Positions 1 to 13,100 of a DNA stretch of 32,000 bases are shown here, in pieces. Positions within the stretch are counted from its first letter, which is position 1. Each line of letters starts with the position of its first letter. The translations under genes were made by a program, and so were the position numbers. The notes beneath the pieces are model-generated. The model searched no databases, was not told the origin of the DNA, and saw only the letters and a program-made list of their open reading frames with translations. Source of the DNA: Candidatus Electronema halotolerans (GTDB lineage Bacteria > Desulfobacterota > Desulfobulbia > Desulfobulbales > Desulfobulbaceae). The DNA lies in assembly GCA_942493095.1 (NCBI GenBank), contig OW818675.1, positions 1,110,001-1,142,000 on the forward strand. The letters are read 5' to 3'.

Positions 1-881
1 GTTAGCGGCAGTTGGCTGAGACCGGCCTTGCAGCGGATGATCGCCGCTCTGGTGCTGTACTCCGGGGCCTTGATGTCTGTGACCAAGCCGGAACTCATGC
101 GCGAACGGAAATCCTCATCCACGCCGGTAAGCGAGCGCGGGGCCACGGCTGAGGTGAGAATGACCCGCTTCCCGGACTTGATCAGGAAATCCAAGATATT
201 GTTCAGCTCCTCCTGGGTCTTGGTCTTGCCGCTCAGGGTGTGGACATCCTCGACCAAGAGCAGATCGCAGCCCTGAATGAAGCGGCTGGAAAACTGCTCC
301 ATCGTGTTCTCGCGGATGTTCTTGACCATCTCTGCCGAGAACTGCTGGGCAGTCAGGTAATGGAGGCGGGTCTGCGGCGCGCTGTGCATGACCTGATGCA
401 CCACAGCCTGGGTGAGGTGACTCTTGCCCAAGCCTGTGCCGGAGGTGAGAAACAGGCTGCTGCCAAAGGCGGGATCCGCATCAGCAATGGCCCGGCAGAC
501 CGTGCGGGCGAGCAGATTGGACTGCCCGACCATGAACTGCTCAAAGGTGTAGCCGGGATGAAGGGAGCGCACTGCGGCCTTGAACTTGTTCATGCCGGGC
601 AGACGGAGCTGACCAGAGCCGTTCGCTTCCGGCTGCGGCGCAGGCATGGCCTCAGAGACGGTCAGCGAGACCTTTGGCGGCGAACTGCTCAGGCTGCTCA
701 GACTGGCCTCAATCAGCTTCAGGTAGCGGTCCCGCACCCAAGTGCAAAAGAAGCGGTCTGGGCAGGCTATCTCCAGCACCTGCCTGCTCTCCCGGACGCA
801 GGCGATGGGTTTGATCCAGAGGCTGTACTCGCTGGCGGAAAGCGTGGCGGACAGGGATTGCTTGACAGTTTCCCAAAGCAT
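1..881 (-). CDS. dnaA: Chromosomal replication initiator DnaA, 5' part only (293 codons; 3' end lies beyond the left edge)
   Basis: Hand translation of the minus strand from the ATG at 881-879 gives MLWETVKQSLSATLSASEYSLWIKPIACVRESRQVLEIACPDRFF..HPGYTFEQFMVGQSNLLA..LFLTSGTGLGKSHLTQAV (Walker A)..CDLLLVEDVHTLSGKTKTQEELNNILDFLIKSGKRVILTSAVAP..FRSRMSSGLVTDIKAPEYSTRAAII. There is no stop down to position 1. It is absent from the ORF track because no stop lies inside the window. Confidence 0.9.
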   Translation of the reverse strand, partial: MLWETVKQSLSATLSASEYSLWIKPIACVRESRQVLEIACPDRFFCTWVRDRYLKLIEASLSSLSSSPPKVSLTVSEAMPAPQPEANGSGQLRLPGMNKFKAAVRSLHPGYTFEQFMVGQSNLLARTVCRAIADADPAFGSSLFLTSGTGLGKSHLTQAVVHQVMHSAPQTRLHYLTAQQFSAEMVKNIRENTMEQFSSRFIQGCDLLLVEDVHTLSGKTKTQEELNNILDFLIKSGKRVILTSAVAPRSLTGVDEDFRSRMSSGLVTDIKAPEYSTRAAIIRCKAGLSQLPL

Positions 882-1170
882 AAAACAAGGTCTTGGCAGT
901 CGGAGGTGAAAACAGAAAACAACGGGATGCGGCTTTCTTTTACCTGAAAACCAGCCGGGCCGTCAAAAACGATACAGCCCGATTTGCTCCGCCTTTGCGC
1001 TTGGCGGCGGCAAGGCCGGATCAGGCGGACTTTCAAGCCCTTGCGCTCCGCCTGCGGGCGAAGCTCTTCGGAACGCAGGACTTTTTGCCCCTGCGGCGCA
1101 ATGCTGCCGCATATCAGGAGATTGCCACCTGTCAGCTTTGCCTTGCTGATCTTGGCGGCAAAGGCCGAAG

Positions 1171-1236
1171 TCAGCCATCCTCAGCCAAGCTGCACCGTCC
1201 TCTGAAATGCGGCATTTTTCGTTGAAAGGCTCAGGA
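1171..1236. repeat. Direct repeat, copy 1 (66 nt)
   Basis: The sequence tcagccatcctcagccaagctgcaccgtcctctgaaatgcggcatttttcgttgaaaggctcagga is identical to 4754-4818 except for one extra a. It overlaps the stop codon of the phosphatase remnant. A weaker match (ggcggc..aag) extends about 15 nt further left. Confidence 0.9.
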
Positions 1237-1587
1237 GAAGTTGCCGGGAAGATTTAACGCCCGCAGCACCGCCCCTTGAGAAAAAATATCCAGCACGGTT
1301 AAAGAAGCGGGCCGCACATCAAAGAGCAGATAACTGCGCGGTGGCAGGTTGAGCGCGGCGCAGAGCATGGCCCGGATCATTCCGCCGTGGGCGACTGCGG
1401 CGACATGGCCGCCCGATGCGGCGAGGACTGCCAGCATTTCCTTTATCCGGCAGAGAAAATCAGCAACGGCCTCGCCTTCCGGGAAGACAAAGCCTTCATA
1501 GTCCTCCTGCCAAGCAGTGATTTTTTCTGGAGCAGCAGCGGCAATCTCGGCAAAAGTTTTCAGCTCCCACGCGCCGAAATCAATTTT
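1231..1587 (-). pseudogene. Histidine phosphatase (PGM/CobC-like) family, 5'-truncated remnant
   Basis: Extending track ORF 1231..1437 in frame up to the TGA at 1588-1590 gives 118 codons: KIDFGAWELKTFAEIAAAAPEKITAWQEDYEGFVFPEGEAVADFLCRIKEMLAVLAASGGHVAAVAHGGMIRAMLCAALNLP... This matches the C-terminal two thirds of the fold (E.DFG.WE..TF, V.HGG.IR). The N-terminal RHG catalytic segment is missing, and the sequence 5' of it switches abruptly to about 30% GC. Confidence 0.6.
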
Positions 1588-2010
1588 TCAAGAGCCTGTT
1601 CGTAAAAAAGCGAATATCTCATCTATTGATATATAGATAAAGTAAAAAACAGGGGTTTTACTCAAGAGTATCTCGTCGTAATAAATACTTGTCTTGCTGC
1701 ATTGTTTAGTGCAATTTGTCTTATCAAGTGTGATACAATATTTAACAGAAAGTTCAATTTCTCCATTTTTACCTTTAGAAATATCGTAAAAAATATTTTC
1801 GTAAAAATAATCTATACCTTGCTTCTCAAAATCTAAATCTGAAATATCCTTGTTTGCGCGTATTTCTTTGCAATCTTCATAATTGATATTTCTTTGACGA
1901 AAAAATTCCTGAACCTTTGGTACTATCAATTCGTTTTTAATTTTCTCGCTGTCTTTGAGTTGTAAATATGCAACGTAACAGCTTGCAGATTCTTTATTTT
2001 CGCTAATCAT
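1588..2010 (-). CDS. Hypothetical protein (140 aa), third gene of the low-GC cassette
   Basis: Track ORF. Its ATG overlaps the stop of the upstream gene by 8 nt (ATGATTAG). It is AT-rich like its two partners, and I recognise no motif and no TM segment. The last ~7 codons (..FAFLRTGS*) run into host-GC DNA and end on the same in-frame TGA that caps the phosphatase remnant. Confidence 0.55.
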   Translation of the reverse strand: MISENKESASCYVAYLQLKDSEKIKNELIVPKVQEFFRQRNINYEDCKEIRANKDISDLDFEKQGIDYFYENIFYDISKGKNGEIELSVKYCITLDKTNCTKQCSKTSIYYDEILLSKTPVFYFIYISIDEIFAFLRTGS

Positions 2011-3586
2011 AATTCAGATAGGCCTTTTGCATGGTGTAAAAATTTGCTTTAAAAAGATCAATTTTAGACTTAGGCAATCTATTGTAAAGTTTCTCTGAAT
2101 TTTCTCTGAAGCCGATTTTATCTTCTTCACTTCTGTATGATATATTATTACTATAGAAAAAAGGGATAACAAGTTGATTGTATAACTTATTAATATCACC
2201 ATCTTTCTTTAAACAAAATTCATAACATAATTGTTTTGTTATATCCGTGTCAAGTTTTTTACTTCTTTTAAAGAAAAATGATAAATCAAAATATTTCCAA
2301 TCTGTCAGGAATATAGACTCAGTAAAGTTTCCAAGATACGCATTAAAGCTTGTATATGTATCTTTTGGGTATAATTTAAATATCATTTTATTTTCATTAA
2401 CTCTCTCTGGCCTAAAACCACTAGATTTTTCTCTAAGTTTAGAACACCAATTTTTGTATTTTTTTCTATTTTTTTTTGACGAACTGTCGATCAATTCAAT
2501 GCTAAAATCAACTCTTACCTTCCAGTCATTAATTAATTCTATTTTAATAAATTCAGGAAAAGATAGTTCTACAAAAGAATAAATTATATCTGGTTTTATA
2601 TATCTTGATTTATCTCTGAAGTCTACAGAAAAACGATTGTTAATATCACTTCTTTCATTTTTACCGTTCATTTCTTTGTCAATATATAACACATTGTAAT
2701 CATTAGCAATAATATACGTATTGCACATATCCTCCCAAATCTGGTAAAAATTACTGATCCCCCAGAACACACCATCTACGTGAGGATTATTCATATCCAA
2801 CTCACCGTAAAGAAAAGACTCGATAGCTTCATAAAGTCGCCAGTAATCATTATCTTTATAGGCAGTTGACTTGTCAATATTGTGCAGCAAGTCCTTCAAG
2901 GTGATTATTGTTTCTTCAAATGTGTCTTCATGAAAAATGGATTGATCGCAGCTAAGGCATTCTTCTTTAAATTTTACAGACAATTCGCGAACCCTGCTGT
3001 CTGTTCCCTGATCAAGCTCCTTATTCACCTCGTGCAAGATGAAACAGAACATATCAATGAGCGTTGCTGATTTATATTGAATAACATTTTTTGGCAACTC
3101 CATGCTGTCAATATAAATAACATATTCATCAATATTCTCTTCTTGATAAATAGCTTTATCAAGATATTTATCAATCTTTGAATAATCTATTTTTTCATCT
3201 ATCCCTATTTGCCTTTCAATCACATCTAAAGATAAATCATTGTATGCTTCAAGTAAGTTTTCAATTACAGATATTTTACTATAAAGAACAACCTCGCTGC
3301 CTTCACTGTCTTGAAAACTGTATCCATCATGCAACTTTTCAATATTATCTCTTCTTCCTTGTGTTTTGTCAATATATCTTCCAGAATGATCCCGTTCAAA
3401 TTTTTTGAACGTTCTATACATTCTGAAGAATAACTTTTTAGTTTCATTGAAATCATTTTCAGGAAAGTCGGCAAATCCCCTCGGCAAACGAAACTCCATT
3501 TCGCCAGACGTGCTGCGTCTGATGCCGACAAAAGGATCAGTTTCATTAGCCTTTTTGTTTAACTTCAATTCCTTAAAATTAAACAT
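2003..3586 (-). CDS. McrC-like / LlaJI-R2-like putative nuclease subunit (527 aa)
   Basis: It starts 1 nt after the stop of the McrB-like gene (TGA-T-ATG). Motifs resemble the McrC C-terminal nuclease region: FYQIWEDMC, YIKPDIIY (PD), then two candidate (D/E)xK triplets, INDWKV (21 aa later) and FLTDWKYF (96 aa later). The assignment rests on gene context and these short motifs only. Confidence 0.6.
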   Translation of the reverse strand: MFNFKELKLNKKANETDPFVGIRRSTSGEMEFRLPRGFADFPENDFNETKKLFFRMYRTFKKFERDHSGRYIDKTQGRRDNIEKLHDGYSFQDSEGSEVVLYSKISVIENLLEAYNDLSLDVIERQIGIDEKIDYSKIDKYLDKAIYQEENIDEYVIYIDSMELPKNVIQYKSATLIDMFCFILHEVNKELDQGTDSRVRELSVKFKEECLSCDQSIFHEDTFEETIITLKDLLHNIDKSTAYKDNDYWRLYEAIESFLYGELDMNNPHVDGVFWGISNFYQIWEDMCNTYIIANDYNVLYIDKEMNGKNERSDINNRFSVDFRDKSRYIKPDIIYSFVELSFPEFIKIELINDWKVRVDFSIELIDSSSKKNRKKYKNWCSKLREKSSGFRPERVNENKMIFKLYPKDTYTSFNAYLGNFTESIFLTDWKYFDLSFFFKRSKKLDTDITKQLCYEFCLKKDGDINKLYNQLVIPFFYSNNISYRSEEDKIGFRENSEKLYNRLPKSKIDLFKANFYTMQKAYLNYD

Positions 3587-3587
3587 A

Positions 3588-4631
3588 TCACAAACTTTTG
3601 ATTTTCTCTATAAAGTCATTAACTTTCTTGGCGAAATCTCCGAATGTTACTAACGGTTCCTGATCTTTCTGTTCCTTTCCATAAAAAAGTTCAATCAAAG
3701 GCTTCTTGTCCCTACTAAAGACATTATCCCAGATAAAAAACATCAGTTTATTTTGTATTGTTGCCTTTTTTACCTCTACCTTAGCATCCTCATTCATAGC
3801 ATCCTTAATAAACCAATGACCTATCTGCTTATCCTCTATTCCACGAATATACTTGTGATTTGATTTTATAAAATTATTTAATTTTTCAATAAACTTTACC
3901 CAATCTTCCTTATTAGAAAAAGCAATGCCATCTTCTTTGATAGGATTTGAGTCAACATCGATAAATTCCCATTCCCATCTCCTTTTAAACGCGCTGTCCA
4001 TATAATATATGGAACTTTCTGAAGTATTCATAGTTGCGATGATGGATAAATTGTAAGGAATTTTTATAGACTTAGTGAATATATCAAATCCTATAAGTTT
4101 ATAGTATTCATCTTTAACTTCTTTAGTTTGAAAATTATAACCAATAACTTTACTTCCAGTCTTACGTGGTTCAAATCCAAGAAGACCAATGAGTTTTTCA
4201 AAAACAACTTCGGTTATATTTATATAATAATCTGACATTCCTTGACTATCTCTATCCAACAACTGGAATATTGGACCAAATATGGCAGATGAATTACCTC
4301 TGTTAATTTCATCAATTACCAATGCAACATTACTTACTTCTGAACATTTATCTATTTCTTTTTCAAGAATATTTTTATATGCTTGTGATAGTGCTTTTAA
4401 GAAGTGACCTTCATGAAAGTTATACTGCACCTTCCCTTCCTTGGTGATCGGAAGCAGCTTGCCCATAAAATCGCCATGTGTATATTCTGGATGAAAGACG
4501 GCTTTTATAATATTTTCTGGTGTTTCCTCTTTGTCTATGAAAAGTTCATAAGGAATAATTTCGTTGTCTATCCTGTAGCTTTTTCCTGTTCCGGGGCTGC
4601 CGAACAATATTTTTTGAATAGGTGTGGTCAT
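3588..4631 (-). CDS. McrB-family AAA+ (GTPase-type) restriction subunit, no N-terminal DNA-binding domain (347 aa)
   Basis: Walker A GSPGTGKSY sits at residues 11-19. Other motifs are VFHPEYTHGDFMG, Walker B/McrB signature LVIDEINRGNSSAIFGPIFQLLDRD, IIATMNTSESS and MDSAFKRRWEWEF. A GGAG lies 7 nt upstream of the ATG (4639-4642). Confidence 0.85.
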   Translation of the reverse strand: MTTPIQKILFGSPGTGKSYRIDNEIIPYELFIDKEETPENIIKAVFHPEYTHGDFMGKLLPITKEGKVQYNFHEGHFLKALSQAYKNILEKEIDKCSEVSNVALVIDEINRGNSSAIFGPIFQLLDRDSQGMSDYYINITEVVFEKLIGLLGFEPRKTGSKVIGYNFQTKEVKDEYYKLIGFDIFTKSIKIPYNLSIIATMNTSESSIYYMDSAFKRRWEWEFIDVDSNPIKEDGIAFSNKEDWVKFIEKLNNFIKSNHKYIRGIEDKQIGHWFIKDAMNEDAKVEVKKATIQNKLMFFIWDNVFSRDKKPLIELFYGKEQKDQEPLVTFGDFAKKVNDFIEKIKSL

Positions 4632-4753
4632 GTTATATCTCCAATATCAGTCAGTTAAACGAGTTTCTTCGCTTAGACAATTTCGCCGCGCATACTGTAC
4701 CAAAAAACGCAAAGGAGGCAAGCGCATTTCTGCACTCAAAATGGCGGCCAAGA

Positions 4754-4818
4754 TCAGCCATCCTCAGCCAAGCTGCACCGTCCTCTGAAATGCGGCATTT
4801 TTCGTTGAAGGCTCAGGA
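4754..4818. repeat. Direct repeat, copy 2 (65 nt)
   Basis: Same sequence as 1171-1236 minus one a. It lies 15 nt 3' of the TauE/SafE stop codon. Confidence 0.9.
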
Positions 4819-4832
4819 CTGCCTGCTGGAAC

Positions 4833-5735
4833 TTATCTGAGCGCAGCGAGCAGATAACTGCCTGCTGAGAAGAGCACAAACAGGGAAAGCACCAGTTTGA
4901 TCGCCTTGGCAGGCACATATTTCTGACAGCGCGCCCCAAGATAGATGCCGCAGAAACCGCCAATGCCGAAGAGAAAGCCGAGCTGCCAGTCCGGGGCTAC
5001 AGACAGTCCGGGATAAAAGGCGGCCAGCACCTGATAGACCAGAACCCCTGCTATTGAAGTGACCAGCGTTCCCATCAGGGAGGCTCCGGCCACTGCATAG
5101 ACCGGCAACTGGAAAAAGGCGACCATGAACGGGGCGATGATCGCTCCGCCGCCAATGCCATAGATGCCACCGACTATGCCAACAAAAAAGCAAAGCAGCA
5201 CTAACCACGGCACGGAGAAGGAGTAGCTCTGACCGGCAAAGCTGAATCCGGCCCGTTGCAGCGAGAACACCGCATCTGCGACAAAGGCGGTGCGGGCAGC
5301 CTTGTCCTGCTGTCCTGCCACCTGCTTGCGGAAGACATCAGCCAGCAATTTGCTGCCCACATACAGCAGCACCAGTCCGGCGAAGAGTTTGAAGTCCTTG
5401 GGGTCAGGCAGATATTCCAGCCGCAGCCACGCCCCGATCAGCACGCCCGGCAAGGTGCCGATGATCACGGCTCCGGCCAGCGGCCAGACCATGCGCCGTT
5501 CTTGCGTATATCGCCACACGCCGCTGGGAATGGCGACAATGTTGAAAAGCTGATTGGTGGCGCTGACAGACGGGGCAGTGTAATGGAGGATGCTCATCTG
5601 AAAGGGCAGGAGCAGAAATGCGCCGGACAGGCCGCCCATTGAGGCGAAGAACGAGACAATAAAGGCGGTCAGCGGCGGCACAAATATCCATGTTGTCACG
5701 CCGGAGATCGGAAAGGTGCAGAGGAAATAATCCAT
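4833..5735 (-). CDS. TauE/SafE (TSUP, DUF81) family anion/sulfite exporter-like permease (300 aa)
   Basis: Polytopic membrane protein with the family's duplicated Gly-rich segments (FFASMGGLSGAFLLLP and GIVGGIYGIGGGAIIAP). Confidence 0.85.
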   Translation of the reverse strand: MDYFLCTFPISGVTTWIFVPPLTAFIVSFFASMGGLSGAFLLLPFQMSILHYTAPSVSATNQLFNIVAIPSGVWRYTQERRMVWPLAGAVIIGTLPGVLIGAWLRLEYLPDPKDFKLFAGLVLLYVGSKLLADVFRKQVAGQQDKAARTAFVADAVFSLQRAGFSFAGQSYSFSVPWLVLLCFFVGIVGGIYGIGGGAIIAPFMVAFFQLPVYAVAGASLMGTLVTSIAGVLVYQVLAAFYPGLSVAPDWQLGFLFGIGGFCGIYLGARCQKYVPAKAIKLVLSLFVLFSAGSYLLAALR

Positions 5736-5927
5736 TTGTTAATCCAGCAGCAAGCGCAAAACGTGGGGAATGTCTCTGCCAAGGGATGTAGCAGCACAAT
5801 AAACTGACTACAGGTCAGGCTGCTGAAAGCAGCTTCATCGACCGAGCAGCCGAATCCGCTGAACTCTTCATCTTGATAAATTTTACAGATATTTATGCGG
5901 ACGCAGGCAATGCCATGCTGCCGCGAT

Positions 5928-6101
5928 TCAAGCATTCCTCTCTGGTTTCTTTGGATCAGAAGCGAGAACAACAAGAGCGCCGATCACCGGGGTCAGGAGA
6001 ACGGAGCAGAAGAAATAGCCCCAGAAGCCAAACTTCCGATGTCGGCCCACAAAACCGATTATCACGCAAAGAACAATTAAAATCAAACCTTGCGGGGTCA
6101 T
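5928..6101 (-). CDS. Small membrane protein (57 aa), not in the ORF track
   Basis: The ATG at 6101-6099 overlaps the SPFH stop (ATGA). The translation is MTPQGLILIVLCVIIGFVGRHRKFGFWGYFFCSVLLTPVIGALVVLASDPKKPERNA*, which contains two hydrophobic helices. It falls below the 60-aa track cutoff. Confidence 0.5.
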   Translation of the reverse strand: MTPQGLILIVLCVIIGFVGRHRKFGFWGYFFCSVLLTPVIGALVVLASDPKKPERNA

Positions 6102-7087
6102 TCACTGCCTCCCTGCCTGACTGGCGAAGAAAGATTGCGTTGAGCTGACGATGGTTCAGCTTCAGGTTTCAAAGGAACTGCAACCGCATCACTGGAAGAA
6201 ATCGGCCAGTCTCCGGCATTGAGCATCAGAGGCAGGCCATCTTTTCCCCCGCCAATGATCACCACCTTGGCATTCGGCGAAGAGGCCAGTTCAAGCGTGG
6301 CCTGAACACCATGCCAATGCAGAACTTTGTCGTCCATTGTTTTGGAAATATTCTCCGCATATTTTTGGATGCCAAGGGATTCAATCTCTTTTTTCTCCGC
6401 CTCCCTTCTGGCTGTTTCGAGACGAAAGACGTAGGATTGCAAGACCTGCTCATGCACTAACTTTTCTTCAATCGCATCTTTGATCTGCTTGGGAAGAACA
6501 ATTTCCCGGATGATGATGTCATCAACAATGACGTACTTCTGGCCGACTTCATCAATGGCGTTCTTGACTAAGGTTGTCAGCAGGTGCCCCTTGTTGGTGT
6601 AAATGTCTTCAGCAACATGAACGCCAAGCCCTTTGCGCAGCACGGATTCAATCTGAGGCAGAATAATTTTATTGGGATAATCCGGGCCGATCCGCTGGTG
6701 AAGCACGCCGAGCAGCTCAAAAATAGGCCGGTAGCGAACCGCCAGTTTCAGGGTGACTGGCAGACCGCTGCTGGTCAGCACGTCAAACTCATGGCGGATG
6801 ATCTGGACACGGGCATCATAGATGGCCATGGTGTTGAAGGGATTGATCACCAGGAAGCCTTCAGGATAGACCCGGACAGTTTCTGTGCCGCCCCAGAAAG
6901 GCCGGTACATGACCCCTGCCTCGCCAGCTTCAATCCAGATGAACATCCGGTTCCAAAGGATGATGACAGCTATGGTGCAGGACAGGCCGAGCATAACCCA
7001 ATGCAGCCAGTTGTCCCGGACAGAATAGCGCAGCCGCTCCAGCAGAGGCGGTTTCGGGCGCGGGGCGGCGGATTTCAGACTGCTCAT
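6098..7087 (-). CDS. SPFH/Band 7 (prohibitin-like) domain protein with N-terminal TM anchor (329 aa)
   Basis: A TM segment WVMLGLSCTIAVIILW is followed by a PHB-like core (VMYRPFWGG..VYPEGF..INPFNTMAIYDARVQ..LTSSGLPVTLKLAVRYR) and a coiled-coil-like stretch (ETARREAEKKEIESLG). It starts 16 nt after the ABC stop. Confidence 0.85.
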   Translation of the reverse strand: MSSLKSAAPRPKPPLLERLRYSVRDNWLHWVMLGLSCTIAVIILWNRMFIWIEAGEAGVMYRPFWGGTETVRVYPEGFLVINPFNTMAIYDARVQIIRHEFDVLTSSGLPVTLKLAVRYRPIFELLGVLHQRIGPDYPNKIILPQIESVLRKGLGVHVAEDIYTNKGHLLTTLVKNAIDEVGQKYVIVDDIIIREIVLPKQIKDAIEEKLVHEQVLQSYVFRLETARREAEKKEIESLGIQKYAENISKTMDDKVLHWHGVQATLELASSPNAKVVIIGGGKDGLPLMLNAGDWPISSSDAVAVPLKPEAEPSSAQRNLSSPVRQGGSE

Positions 7088-9322: not shown

Positions 9323-10192
9323 TCAGCGCAATGACTTGACAAGACGAAACCCTAAAAAGCTGTATCGGTCATTCGGATCGTACTTGATGCGGCAGGCGGC
9401 CCGGCAATGCTTGGCATCTGCGCTCCAAGCACCGCCACGGGCAATATGCAGCCGCCCCTGACTGCAAAGCGGATCAACAATGCCTTCACGATAGGTGTCC
9501 GAGACAATCATATCTTTTTTCTCATCCCAGTCGCATTGGTCCAAGCATCGCTCCAGCACATTGCCATGCACATCATGCAGACCCCACCTGTTTGGCCGCG
9601 ACCAGCTGACAGGAAGCGTCTGGTTTCTGTTCACGCCGCTGTTCTGACAGCCCGGCAGCGGATTCACTGCATCATTGAAATTGACCTCTTCTGCTGAAAG
9701 GCAGTCTCCAAAAGCAAAACGGGCATTGCCGCCTGCCCGGCAGGCATATTCCCATTCCGCTTCAGTAGGCAGGCGGCACAGTTCTCCCTCCTCTGCCAGC
9801 CAATTGATAAACGCCTCAATGTCGTGCATGGAAACACAGGTCACAGGATGCTCATCTGTTTGCGCAAACCCCGGAGTCTGCCACGTGCAGGAGGAATTTT
9901 TGCTCCATTCTTCCTCAAACTGGCCACCCGCACCATCACCAAATAAACCAATGGCACCGTCTTCCTTTTCCGCTTGGGTGAGGAAACCGGTCGCATCAAC
10001 GAAACGCCGCCACTGCCCAACTGTCACCGGCGTTGTCTGGAGATAAAAACCTTTGCTCAGTGTAACCTTGTGCAGCAGTTCATCAGCATATCTGCCCACC
10101 TCATCTTCAGGACTGCCCATCATGAAGGTGCCAGGCTGGATATGAACAAATGTCATGTCGAGCCGGTTTTGCAGACTCTTTTCATTGGTCAT
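9323..10192 (-). CDS. FGE-sulfatase (SUMF1/EgtB/PvdO) family protein, paralog 2 (289 aa)
   Basis: Motifs: FVHIQPGTFMMGSP, HKVTLSKGFYLQTTPVTVGQW, HPVTCVSMHD, RLPTEAEWEYACRAG, WGLHDVHGNVLE, RGGAW....CRAA..., LGFRL. I prefer the ATG at 10192, which has AAGGAG at 10199-10204 (6-nt spacer), over the track start at 10252. It overlaps the NRPS B stop by 11 nt. Confidence 0.85.
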   Translation of the reverse strand: MTNEKSLQNRLDMTFVHIQPGTFMMGSPEDEVGRYADELLHKVTLSKGFYLQTTPVTVGQWRRFVDATGFLTQAEKEDGAIGLFGDGAGGQFEEEWSKNSSCTWQTPGFAQTDEHPVTCVSMHDIEAFINWLAEEGELCRLPTEAEWEYACRAGGNARFAFGDCLSAEEVNFNDAVNPLPGCQNSGVNRNQTLPVSWSRPNRWGLHDVHGNVLERCLDQCDWDEKKDMIVSDTYREGIVDPLCSQGRLHIARGGAWSADAKHCRAACRIKYDPNDRYSFLGFRLVKSLR

Positions 10193-13100
10193 TGTTCTCT
10201 CCTTGGTCTGGTGCAAAATATTCAGACAGAATTGCCGTCCAGTTCTCCACATGCGGCGAGAACATCATGCTCATGTGATTTCCTCCGACCCAATGTTCTC
10301 TGACTTCAGCCGTAGTGCATTCAGGCCAGCCTTGGGTCACGAATTCTCTATTGGCCAAGCCGCCGAAGCCGTCAGTTGATTCACTGGCGCAAAACAGATG
10401 AATTGGACAATGAAGATTGCCCGGCATGACATAGACTTGATCTGCCTGGCAGGTGCGCTTATAGACATTGACCATTGCTTTCAGCTCGTCAAGCGAGGTG
10501 TTGGGAGCAAAGATATTGTGCTGCCGGAACAGTTCCATGACATGCTCATACGCAGCCTCCAGATTTCCAAAGGCTTCCAAGTCTTGGACAGAGACGTTCA
10601 AATCTGTCTGCTGTGTTGTCTCAAAGGCATAGACAATATCATGCAGCCAATTATACTCATTGTAAAAGTCCATTTCATCATGTTCGGGCGGCGAGTTCGG
10701 CGCATAGGTGTCCAAGATGGCAAGACCCTGCACCTGCTCTCCTTCCTGCTCCAGCAGCCAAGCCAACTCATAGGCGACTCGTCCGCCAGCAGAATGGCCG
10801 ACTAAGAAGTGCGGACCAGTAATGTGCTGCTGCCGCAGATTCTGCCGATGAAAGAGTGCCAGCTCCTTTAAATCTTGAATTGCAGCAAAGGAGCCGTCCA
10901 AGCCCGGCGATTGCAGCGCATAAACAGGATACATTCCGCCCAAGCTGGAGGCAAGAGAATAAAAATACATGACCGAACCAGTCGCTTCCGGCAGCAGGAG
11001 CATGACACCCTTGCCCGCCTTCCCGCTCCGCAGCGGAATCAGGCAAGAGGAATCATCTGTTCTCCTTTCACGCAGCTGCTCGGCCAGCTCGGCGACGGTC
11101 GGGCTTTTAAACAGGCTGCTGACAGGCAGTTTCAGGTCAAACTGCTGGTGTATCTTGGCCATGAGCTGCAAGGCCAGCAGGGAATGGCCGCCGAGTTCAA
11201 AGAAGTTGTCATGGATGCTGATCCTGCTTTGGTTGAGCACGGCTTCCCAGATGGAAATCAGTTGCAGCTCAGTTGCGTCACGGGCAAATTTTTTCTCCTC
11301 CTGAAGATAGCTGCTCACCTCAAGTAATGCCAGCATGTTGCGGTCAATCTTGCCGCTGGGCGCAATCGGCATGGTCTCAACAACGCAGAAGGCTGCCGGA
11401 ATCATGTAGTCCGGCAAATGCTGCTGCAGCCATGAGCGCATGGCCTGCGTCTCCACCGGACATCGGACGGTGAGATACGCAACAAGCTGGCTGTCCGCTT
11501 CATCCTCTCTCCGCAGCAGGACCACCGCCTCGCTCACCGCCTCATGCTGGCGCAGCACAGCTTCAATCTCACCCAGTTCGATGCGGAAGCCGCGCAGCTT
11601 GATCTGATTGTCAACTCGGCCAATATATTCTATATTGCCATCAGGAAGCCATCTCGCCAAATCGCCGGTCTTGTACACCCGCTGCCGCTCGCCAAGCAGC
11701 TCAAGCGTGACAAACTGTTGTTCCGTAAGTTCAGGCCGGTTCAAATAGCCCCGCGCAAGACTCGCTCCGGCAATGCAGAGTTCTCCAGCAATGCCAAACG
11801 GCTGAATTTGATAATCCGCATTCAGAATATAGAGTTTGGTGTCAGCGGTGGATCTGCCAATCGGCACGGTTGAACAAGTTTCCGGCAGCGGATTGGGCAG
11901 CGTGTAGAGGGATGAGGCAATAACTGCCTCGGTCGGCCCATATTCATTGATGCAGGTCACATTTGGAAAGAGCTGCTGGGTTTTCCGCGCCAAGGCAACG
12001 GGAAAAACATCGCCGGCAAAAATCAGCAGACGCATCCTGTCGAGCTGCCGGGTCACATTTTCAACTTCACACATCTGCTGCCAGTAAGGTGCAGGAATAT
12101 CAACGACTGTGGCTTTTGTTTCATGCAGATATTCAATCAAGTCAAGAGGATTGATCAGTTCTTCCCGCAGCATTATCAAAGCTGCTCCGCCGAGCCATGT
12201 GCAGAAAATCTGTTCAATGGAAGGATCAAAACTTAGCGGCAGAAATTGCAGCACCCTGTCATCGCTGTCTATCCTGTAATAGTCACGCATATAGAGGCAA
12301 TGCAAGGCGATGGGGCCATGCTCCACGCATACGCCTTTTGGCAGTCCGGTTGAGCCGGAAGTATAGATGACATAGGCCAAATCCTCCGGCTTGCTGCGCC
12401 GCTGCGGATTGCCCAGAGCAGCCGCCTGCGCTGCTGTCTTGTCAACATCAATAATAACAAGCTGTTCAAGAGCTAAAAATTTCTCTTTTAACTGTTCTTG
12501 AGTCAGGACAATTTTAGTGCTGCTGTCTTCCAGCATGAAACAAAGACGCTCTGCCGGATAATCTGTGTGCAGCGGCAAATAGGCAGCACCTGTTTTAAGC
12601 ACCGCCAGCAGGGCAATCAGCATGGCCGGTGAACGCTCGACGCAGAGGCCGACTAAGGTGTTTGCCTGCAACCCATGATCTTGAATAAGAGAATGCGCCA
12701 GCGCATTGGCCCTGTCATTGAGCTGCTGATAGGTCAGCTGCTGTTCTTCAGTGATGACGGCAACAGCATGAGGTGTTTCTGCAACTTTGGCTTCAAAAAA
12801 ATCAGCCAATGCCTGCTTGCGTGAATAGGTGCTGGCGGTGTCATTCCATTGCTGAATGCAGCGCGCCTCCTCTGCTGTCAGCAGCGGCAGGGTGCGGATA
12901 TCAGCCTGCGGATTGTCAACTATGCCTTGCAGCAGCACGTCAAAATGTTCTGCCAAACTGATGATTGTCGCCTTGTCAAAAATATCTGTGGCATATTCCC
13001 ACCAGCAGGACAGTTGCTTGTCCTTTGTCACTGCGGTCAGGGTCAGGTCAAATTTGGCCACAGGATATTCAACATCCATGACGCTGACTTCCAAATCCGG

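Follow-up and report, generated by a model that had tools for sequence, protein, structure and literature searches.

The DNA analysed here is a 32-kb window of Candidatus Electronema halotolerans, a cable bacterium, in which positions 1588-4680 carry a three-gene cassette (g1, g2 and g3) related to the McrBC restriction systems. In a scan of guanine-plus-cytosine (GC) content the block stands out at 0.24-0.37 across about 1650-4650, against 0.52-0.66 on both sides, and it is clearly foreign DNA. Its minus-strand open reading frames (ORFs) are three, g1 at 4631..3588, g2 at 3586..2003 and g3 at 2010..1588. The gap between g1 and g2 is 1 nt, and g2 and g3 overlap by 8 nt. An earlier note on this DNA had described a low-GC block of about 3.1 kb, three tightly coupled genes with this gap and overlap and no methyltransferase, and all of this holds; the only methyltransferase domain in the 32 kb sits inside a nonribosomal peptide synthetase (NRPS), and no DNA methyltransferase is present. 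The products of g2 and g3 are 100% identical to GCAAIG_05115 and GCAAIG_05110 of Ca. E. halotolerans. The features of the cassette are as follows.

3588..4631, minus strand: g1, McrB-type AAA+ NTPase core of the R2 type, 347 aa (AAA_5, PADLOC, PDB and pairwise matches)
2003..3586, minus strand: g2, divergent R2.LlaJI/McrC-family nuclease, 527 aa (homologue alignment, Foldseek and hhalign)
2330..2560, minus strand: basic 77-aa insertion of g2, residues 343-419 (AlphaFold2 (AF2) model, charge and alignment)
2588..2593, minus strand: g2 codons P332-D333 (invariant in the alignment)
2294..2302, minus strand: g2 codons D429-W430-K431, the (D/E)xK element (alignment)
1588..2010, minus strand: g3, acidic alpha/beta protein, 140 aa (homologues, g3 hidden Markov model (HMM) and AF2)

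The g1 product matches AAA_5 in Pfam and the PADLOC REase_II model PDLC03547 with E 2e-33, the latter only over profile positions 267-533 of 585. In the PDB it finds McrB of Thermococcus gammatolerans (TgMcrB, E 1e-14) and of Escherichia coli (EcMcrB, E 2e-9). Pairwise, g1 aligns over its full length with a 337-aa stand-alone ATPase from a LlaI-like operon on a Lactococcus plasmid (30% identity, E 4e-46), and with R1.LlaJI of pNP40 over R1 residues 268-528 only, the NTPase half (32% identity, E 7e-41); the pairwise match with E. coli McrB is weaker (E 1e-12). The motifs by which g1 had been recognised as an McrB-type AAA+ core all lie where they were reported, GSPGTGKS at 11-18, DEINRGN at 107-113, MNTSESS at 201-207 and FKRRW at 215-219, and GSPGTGKS, DEINRGN and FKRRW line up with EcMcrB, TgMcrB, R1.LlaJI and the LlaI.R2-like ATPase. 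The P-loop is followed by an aromatic residue (GSPGTGKS-Y, 11-19), and Walker B and the RR sensor II/arginine finger are present. The modification-reading N-terminal domain and the N-linker of canonical McrB are absent, with Walker A at residue 11. A longer N-terminus is impossible, because no start codon lies between the one used and the preceding in-frame stop. The same start is used by about half of the relatives and by a sister locus, L047, described below. The absence of an N-terminal domain, which had been noticed before, is therefore native and not a truncation, and the shared start rules out a g1 cut short by the insertion boundary. With a core of about 340 aa, no DNA-binding domain and no N-linker, g1 has the makeup of a stand-alone R2-type motor.

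The McrB signature MNxxD(R/K)S takes the place of sensor I. The loop of g1, MNTSESS, keeps the Asn and has Glu for Asp; codon 205 (window 4017-4019) reads GAA. L047 also has Glu, and all 42 other loci have MNTSD(S/N)S. In TgMcrB, an alanine mutant of the signature Asp of NxxD abolishes GTPase activity (PMC7680126). With a ratio of nonsynonymous to synonymous substitution rates (dN/dS) of 0.14-0.16, g1 is, by its substitution pattern, under purifying selection despite the Glu in the signature loop.

At least 386 homologues of g2 were found. In an alignment of 104 g2 sequences E285, D303, P332, D333, D429, K431, K451, Q452 and Y455 are invariant, and W430 is kept in 98. The PD lies at residues 332-333. 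Two DWK triplets, 21 and 96 aa after it, had been pointed out as nuclease motifs; they start at residues 354 and 429 as described, but only the second is conserved. D429-W430-K431 aligns with LDAK of R2.LlaJI, whereas the first triplet (354-356) falls inside a variable 77-aa insertion (343-419) between the PD and DxK strands. This insertion is modelled with high predicted local distance difference test (pLDDT) values as two beta-hairpins plus helices. It is basic, with an isoelectric point (pI) of 9.7 and a charge of +6.8, and the adjoining segments are acidic. About 15% of family members lack it, and its absence is commoner where g1 has an N-terminal domain, in five of 12 loci against one of 21 without (Fisher p = 0.016, a test that ignores shared ancestry). 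In the whole AF2 model (pLDDT 79), roughly the first 270 residues form a beta/helical region, and the PD-(D/E)xK nuclease domain lies at the C-terminal end. In the N-terminal region, beta-hairpins 82-103 and 145-159, of low pLDDT, lie between helical bundles, and as modelled they are compatible with a ring-inserting finger domain.

The kinship of g2 is with the LlaJI nucleases. The window protein gives no match to Pfam RE_LlaJI (PF09563) at the gathering score, and six relatives that are 44-58% identical to it (L036, L039, P0023, P0063, P0087 and P0113) pass with 25-35 bits (cut-off 23.6), over the C-terminal part only. Because the relatives pass and the window protein has no match, membership of g2 in RE_LlaJI is transitive, that of a divergent subfamily. 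A Nostoc plasmid homologue, 36% identical to g2, is annotated 'LlaJI family restriction endonuclease'. Foldseek with the g2 model returns a single significant PDB match, the YdjA-YdiS model of Bacillus subtilis (9a5m_A, E 1.9e-8), and YdjA and YdiS are restriction subunits of BsuMI. When hhalign compares the g2 profile, insertion included, with an R2.LlaJI family profile of 52 sequences, E is 1e-3. Once the insertion is taken out the two are colinear over 341 columns (E 9.6e-5), and FVGI/PxG/PE, WE, PD, DxK, KQxxY and FxxP line up. We conclude that g2 belongs to a divergent subfamily of LlaJI/McrC-type nucleases and is not a canonical McrC. The McrC-like nuclease motifs reported earlier are thus upheld as a LlaJI/McrC-family PD-(D/E)xK site invariant in 104 sequences, and the homology behind them is seen in the R2.LlaJI alignment and the YdjA-YdiS fold match, not in any match to a solved McrC.

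The third gene had been called an orphan with no recognisable motif. The second half of that description is borne out, and the first is not. No match to g3 exists in Pfam, NCBIfam, PADLOC, PHROGs or the PDB. The AF2 model (pLDDT 71) is a small alpha/beta protein, and no fold in the PDB or BFVD matches it below E 0.27. With a pI of 5.0 (family median 5.1) the protein is acidic, and three of its cysteines are nearly invariant. Its homologues number 113 in a 90%-clustered database, and the family is small, since at 50% identity it accounts for only 164 clusters in a set of 1.84 billion representatives. About 30 clusters carry extra modules, which include a TOTE S1/CSD-like domain (S1CSD-TOTE-2; CSD, cold-shock domain), Lcl_C, other C-terminal domains of no known family and an N-terminal IF2_N-like segment. 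The g3 HMM places a g3 ORF directly 3' of g2 in 39 of the 40 related loci with DNA there, distant Bacteroidota loci and the Nostoc plasmid among them, and it finds nothing in LlaJI, LlaI-like or E. coli mcrBC loci. Compared with the LlaI-like operon, g3 shows no similarity to the ORF that occupies the place of R1 (for R1 itself the PDB copy used contained no structure) or to the ORF downstream of the nuclease. The g2/g3 overlap is kept in most loci, and its 8 nt suggest translational coupling. With dN/dS at 0.14-0.22, g3 is by this measure under purifying selection. It is neither an orphan nor an artefact of the junction but, as the comparison of loci shows, a core component conserved across the family.

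The survey of the triad in other genomes, which the earlier note had proposed as a check, finds the order g1-g2-g3 in 44 genome loci and in plasmid and metagenome loci. The hosts are Desulfobulbales, Methylococcales, Thiotrichales, Moraxellaceae, Cyanobacteria and Bacteroidota. They are skewed towards filamentous and multicellular forms (cable bacteria, Crenothrix, Thioploca, Marithrix, Thiotrichaceae, Nostoc and Oscillatoriales), in a sample not corrected for bias. None of the neighbouring genes is conserved, and the Pfam families matched by at least two of 147 ORFs flanking 45 loci include no DNA methyltransferase. In each of the 36 loci that allowed a measurement, the triad has a higher AT content than its flanks; for this reason, and because of the direct repeats in the window, we regard it as mobile. 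Neither g2 nor g3 has a match in the phage genome collection. The dN/dS of the triad against two relatives is 0.08-0.22.

Among the relatives, N-terminal fusions of g1 are frequent, with Mrr_N, with leucine-rich repeat (LRR) arrays or with both. LRR arrays of 150-420 aa occur in L005, L016, L017, L019, L027, L029, L035 and L042, the Mrr_N winged helix-turn-helix (wHTH) in L014, L015, L023, L031, L034 and L044, and the two together in L022. We found no published report of LRR-McrB fusions in the branch of g1. The start methionine of the short form (MKTYQQKILFG) is retained inside the fusions, so long and short isoforms of g1 might both exist, as with McrB-L and McrB-S of E. coli.

Several relatives also have two-gene modules between the triad genes, which are left intact. 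A 461-bp pair between g1 and g2 encodes DUF4160- and DUF2442-like products, and a pair of about 630 bp, usually between g2 and g3, has the look of a RelE-type toxin with a helix-turn-helix antitoxin; both were assigned by eye, not by a library search. Such modules lie at L013:7540-8000 and 9666-10296, L014:9654-10278, L016:1981-2442, L023:9345-9975, L027:9357-9991, L029:7243-8000, L035:9123-9756 and L044:5577-6037. A further g1/g2 insert, of about 680 bp, codes for a conserved product of about 225 aa whose N-terminus includes a hydrophobic segment and which has no assigned family. It is found at L015:7319-8000, L023:7322-8000, L031:4930-5635 and L035:7055-7730, only in loci whose g1 has an N-terminal fusion. 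On the conjugative plasmid pNOS3756_2 of Nostoc sp. NIES-3756 (L045, 50608-57837) two more genes with overlapping starts come after the triad, one for a HerA-like (DUF87) ATPase and one for a 704-aa product without known family; the locus is perhaps a version extended to five genes. An anti-restriction gene, ArdA, is found 2.5 kb upstream.

The form of g3 and of these fusions bears on one alternative, in which the trio acts by abortive infection in the manner of a toxin-antitoxin pair: g3 would inhibit a promiscuous g1-g2 nuclease until infection, and the cell would then be killed. A small, acidic, translationally coupled protein universally linked to a nuclease gene would suit an inhibitor, the window proteins have no modification reader, and the LRR, S1/CSD and lectin-like domains of relatives are typical of sensors of protein, RNA or glycans, not of DNA sequence. 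The frequency of the family in filamentous, multicellular bacteria and the toxin-antitoxin-like pairs within the operon in relatives point the same way. However, g3 lies downstream of the putative toxin, while most type II antitoxins lie upstream; library and fold searches show no similarity of g3 to any known antitoxin; and some relatives carry Mrr_N, the DNA-binding wHTH of Type IV enzymes. We consider this explanation unlikely.

Among characterised systems, the closest to the trio is the non-canonical three-gene McrBC group of LlaI and BsuMI, followed by LlaJI. A domain-less McrB with a separate third subunit has already been described for LlaI and BsuMI, in which a separate basic R1 binds DNA and methylases protect the host (Bui et al., bioRxiv 10.64898/2026.08.31.748284). 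LlaI (Lactococcus lactis pTR2030) and BsuMI (B. subtilis) resemble the trio in having three restriction genes and a LlaJI-family nuclease. Their R1, however, is a basic, two-domain, ERCC4-like DNA binder of 313-329 aa encoded first, whereas g3 is acidic, has 140 aa and comes last. Nothing lies upstream of g1 within the cassette, and an R1 DNA-binding subunit is absent from that position. The trio comes with neither a methyltransferase nor a controller gene, in the window or in the scan of neighbour families. Compared with their nuclease, g2 has the 77-aa PD-DxK insertion in addition, and its N-terminal region is about 100 aa longer. New with respect to LlaI and BsuMI are thus the different third subunit and the lack of a cognate methylase. 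LlaJI (L. lactis pNP40, genes M1, M2, R1 and R2) shares with the trio the NTPase half of R1, which aligns with g1 and whose NTSD-type signature matches the g1 relatives, and R2, whose family is colinear with the g2 family through all motifs. R1.LlaJI has in addition a 267-residue N-terminal site-specific DNA-binding part that g1 is without, and the LlaJI operon holds two cytosine methyltransferases and no g3, where the trio holds no methyltransferase and a g3. The trio was found to have no homologue either of the DNA-binding R1 subunit or of the R1.LlaJI B3 domain.

These relationships invite the view that the trio is a classical sequence-specific restriction-modification system of the LlaJI/BsuMI kind, with its protecting methyltransferase elsewhere on the chromosome. 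LlaJI, LlaI and BsuMI, the nearest characterised relatives and those to which g1 and g2 are closest, are site-specific and methylase-dependent, and the BsuMI methylases sit in a separate operon. Yet neither the window nor the recurrent flanking families include a DNA methyltransferase, the trio has no conserved neighbour at all, and homologues of the R1 subunit and of the R1.LlaJI B3 domain are missing. Moreover, the bare trio enters many hosts, in which an unprotected sequence-specific enzyme would be lethal. We hold a classical system to be quite unlikely.

Canonical McrBC (E. coli K-12 and T. gammatolerans) has the same logic of motor plus nuclease, and likewise no methyltransferase. Its McrB shares with g1 the Walker A and B motifs, the signature loop (with Glu for Asp in g1), the RR sensor II/arginine finger and the aromatic residue after the P-loop. 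It differs in its N-terminal modification reader and N-linker, both lacking from the trio, which has a third gene instead. Between solved canonical McrC and g2 neither sequence nor Foldseek similarity was detected. The CoCoNuT systems resemble the trio family as derivatives of McrB and McrC with extra components and, in some members, CSD-type modules. For CoCoNuT McrBC derivatives that have CSDs, RNA is the predicted target (PMC11090510), and some relatives of the window trio have g3 fused to a TOTE S1/CSD-like oligonucleotide/oligosaccharide-binding fold of a kind that usually binds RNA or single-stranded DNA, so that the trio might be an RNA-targeting analogue. We find this very improbable. 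The CoCoNuT GTPase clade has NxD where the g1 family has NxxD (NxxE in the window); coiled coils, HEPN domains and helicases, which are found in CoCoNuT, are all lacking from the trio; the g3 of the window has no S1/CSD domain; and the intact PD-(D/E)xK site of g2 together with the LlaJI kinship favours DNA. In the CoCoNuT census RE_LlaJI appears only as a search alias. In PADLOC-DB v2, the sole defence catalogue checked, the search that the earlier note had suggested succeeds in part: g1 matches generic REase_II models, g2 and g3 match nothing, and no system model is complete. We found no published description of the trio family.

The surroundings of the cassette bear on how it arrived. The flanking features are listed below.

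4632..4745, minus strand: leader 5' of g1, about 90% identical to L047 positions 1-90, up to window 4721
1163..1241, no strand assigned: direct repeat copy 1, dnaA-proximal, starting at the stop codon of the histidine-phosphatase fragment
4746..4823, no strand assigned: direct repeat copy 2, TauE-proximal, exact core 4754-4809
1231..1587, minus strand: histidine-phosphatase pseudogene, 5'-truncated, C-terminal 118 aa, about 57% GC, His_Phos_1 E 2e-22
1..881, minus strand: dnaA, first 293 codons, leaving the window at its start; translation 98% identical to L047 DnaA
4833..5735, minus strand: TauE/SafE-family membrane protein, host gene on the other flank (PF01925, E 1e-38)

The direct repeat comprises 64 nt at 95% identity, or about 79 nt with one indel, and its copies enclose both the cassette and the phosphatase fragment. 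It is present twice in the window and nowhere else in the 32 kb, which rules out a common intergenic element. The cassette therefore entered by a recombination in which the repeat took part. The sister contig L047, from a metagenome, has the same cassette directly upstream of dnaA, whose product carries Pfam DnaA_N, Bac_DnaA and Bac_DnaA_C. In L047 a single repeat copy lies between g3 and dnaA, and the contig ends 90 bp upstream of g1, just short of the expected TauE-proximal copy. Two short-read Logan contigs (L050 and L051) with an identical TauE end about 50 bp past the TauE stop, inside the repeat. Since the assemblies break at the repeat, it is evidently duplicated in the L050, L051 and L047 genomes too. 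No empty site was found, and an exact-pattern metagenome scan with the repeat core gave nothing.

The 118-aa phosphatase fragment, whose GC content is like that of the host, abuts the g3 stop and covers His_Phos_1 positions 80-192 of 194; the N-terminal catalytic part is missing. The insertion had been thought to have destroyed this gene about 700 bp from the dnaA start. The gene is indeed truncated at the junction (1587), 706 bp from that start (881), but the repeats enclose the fragment as well, and L047 has no such fragment. Either the gene was interrupted in place or the fragment arrived with the cassette, for example by a single crossover of a circular intermediate. A search for an intact histidine-phosphatase locus found TauE relatives, at 92% and 78% identity, that are not next to dnaA. 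A 14-nt string, GAGCAGATAACTGC, is identical at 1324-1337 in the phosphatase fragment and at 4848-4861 in the TauE 3' end. The two copies are not colinear with the long repeat and may be chance or micro-homology from a rearrangement.

When 1588-4721 is compared with L047:1-3119 and 1-1219 with L047:3179-4397, identity is 80% for the cassette and 92.7% for the dnaA region. The synonymous divergence (dS) is 0.83-1.21 in the cassette, and in dnaA it is three- to fourfold lower (0.29). Identity to L047 is 86% for g2, 74% for g1 and 69% for g3, and g1 and g3 are no closer to L047 than to L001, an unlinked locus of Electronema sp. KV. This mosaic suggests allele exchange at a fixed site, or a faster evolution of g1 and g3.

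A pseudogene adjoining the cassette, the lack of an integrase and the Asp to Glu change in the g1 signature might together indicate an acquired island in decay, of which a non-functional remnant is left. None of the three ORFs is interrupted, however, and the remaining catalytic residues are intact; dN/dS is 0.08-0.22 against two relatives, and the Glu, being common to L047, has been maintained. A remnant therefore seems hardly credible.

In the leader a GGAG ribosome-binding site precedes the g1 ATG by 8 nt. We infer a weak promoter-like element in TTGCCT-16-TACAGT, whose hexamers fall below the threshold of the consensus scan. A terminator scan found none, Rfam over 1-6500 gave matches at chance level only, and no DnaA-box cluster was found near the cassette. 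Beyond the TauE gene lie an SPFH/Band 7 gene (6098-7087) and a minus-strand NRPS cluster (7104-31888) with two synthetases of 2568 and 3931 aa, the embedded methyltransferase domain belonging to the larger one. The cluster also holds two FGE-sulfatase-like proteins, a radical SAM protein and an ABC exporter.

Taken together, the cassette is probably, though far from certainly, a self-contained, mobile, three-component McrBC-derived nuclease-motor defence system of the non-canonical LlaI/BsuMI/LlaJI branch. The proposal of a non-canonical McrBC-derived module, first made from the letters of the window, is carried by the domain-less McrB, the LlaJI/McrC nuclease and the missing methyltransferase. 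By homology, g1 has all catalytic elements, with Glu for the signature Asp, and no DNA-reading domain, g2 has an intact PD-(D/E)xK site, and g3 is an obligate, co-inherited third gene.

Several points weigh against a nuclease-motor defence system. The family is known from genes alone, and its defence role is a prediction. The g1 loop has Glu in place of the signature Asp of NxxD. By sequence or profile, g2 alone has no significant match in Pfam, NCBIfam, PADLOC, PHROGs or the PDB, its best fold match is an integrative model and not an experimental structure, and solved McrC chains are absent from the top 50 Foldseek matches of its model. The profile-profile E-values of g2 are modest (1e-3 to 1e-4), and the better one was obtained with the insertion removed post hoc. 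Against single E. coli McrC, R2.LlaJI and LlaI.R3 sequences, the g2 profile aligns in hhalign over short motifs only (E 0.014-0.33). For g3, a role is deduced solely from linkage, coupling, charge and fusions.

On the defence reading, a mechanism can be sketched by analogy. In solved McrBC, the AAA+ motor forms a nucleotide-dependent hexamer, and a finger of the nuclease partner plugs the pore and stimulates hydrolysis at one site (PMC7680126). In the McrBC/LlaI/BsuMI template, dimerisation of the PD-(D/E)xK domain cuts both strands (PMC7680126; bioRxiv 10.64898/2026.08.31.748284). By the same logic g1 would assemble into a nucleotide-dependent hexamer. Stand-alone R2 motors without the N-linker hydrolyse GTP, ATP, XTP and ITP alike (bioRxiv 10.64898/2026.08.31.748284), and g1, which has no N-linker to confer specificity for GTP, is predicted to be similarly promiscuous and is probably not GTP-specific. 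The N-terminal finger region of g2 would plug the g1 ring and stimulate hydrolysis, and g2 would dimerise through its nuclease domain and cut DNA. Through the 8-nt overlap g3 would be made stoichiometrically with g2, and it may join the complex as adaptor, sensor or gate. Because it is acidic, g3 itself probably does not bind DNA; for DNA contact in a version without a reader domain, the basic 77-aa insertion of g2 is the foremost candidate. There is no methyltransferase with the trio, and self is therefore most likely told from non-self by a feature of the invader, which would be modified DNA or another infection cue and not host methylation. From the variability in LRR, Mrr_N, S1/CSD and Lcl_C we infer that the g1 N-terminus and the g3 C-terminus are the sites of specificity.

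A broader proposal is possible, and we advance it tentatively. The trio would be a new McrBC-derived immune family aimed by exchangeable sensor modules, on the motor (LRR and Mrr_N) or on g3 (S1/CSD and the lectin-like Lcl_C), with neither a modification reader nor methylation; the minimal form in the window would use g3 and the basic insertion, and g3 would be a new fold coupling sensing to nuclease activation.

McrBC is the textbook motor-driven restriction enzyme, and target finding without a fused reader has only recently been studied, in LlaI and BsuMI. The trio family would represent a third solution, with a different small partner, no methylase and natural domain swaps, and these swaps (LRR, Mrr_N, S1/CSD and lectin-like) would mark where specificity is installed. 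Being compact (3.1 kb), widespread in environmental bacteria, many of them filamentous, and absent as a system from PADLOC-DB v2, the trio represents both an annotation gap and a tractable system for the gating of a PD-(D/E)xK nuclease by an AAA+ ring.

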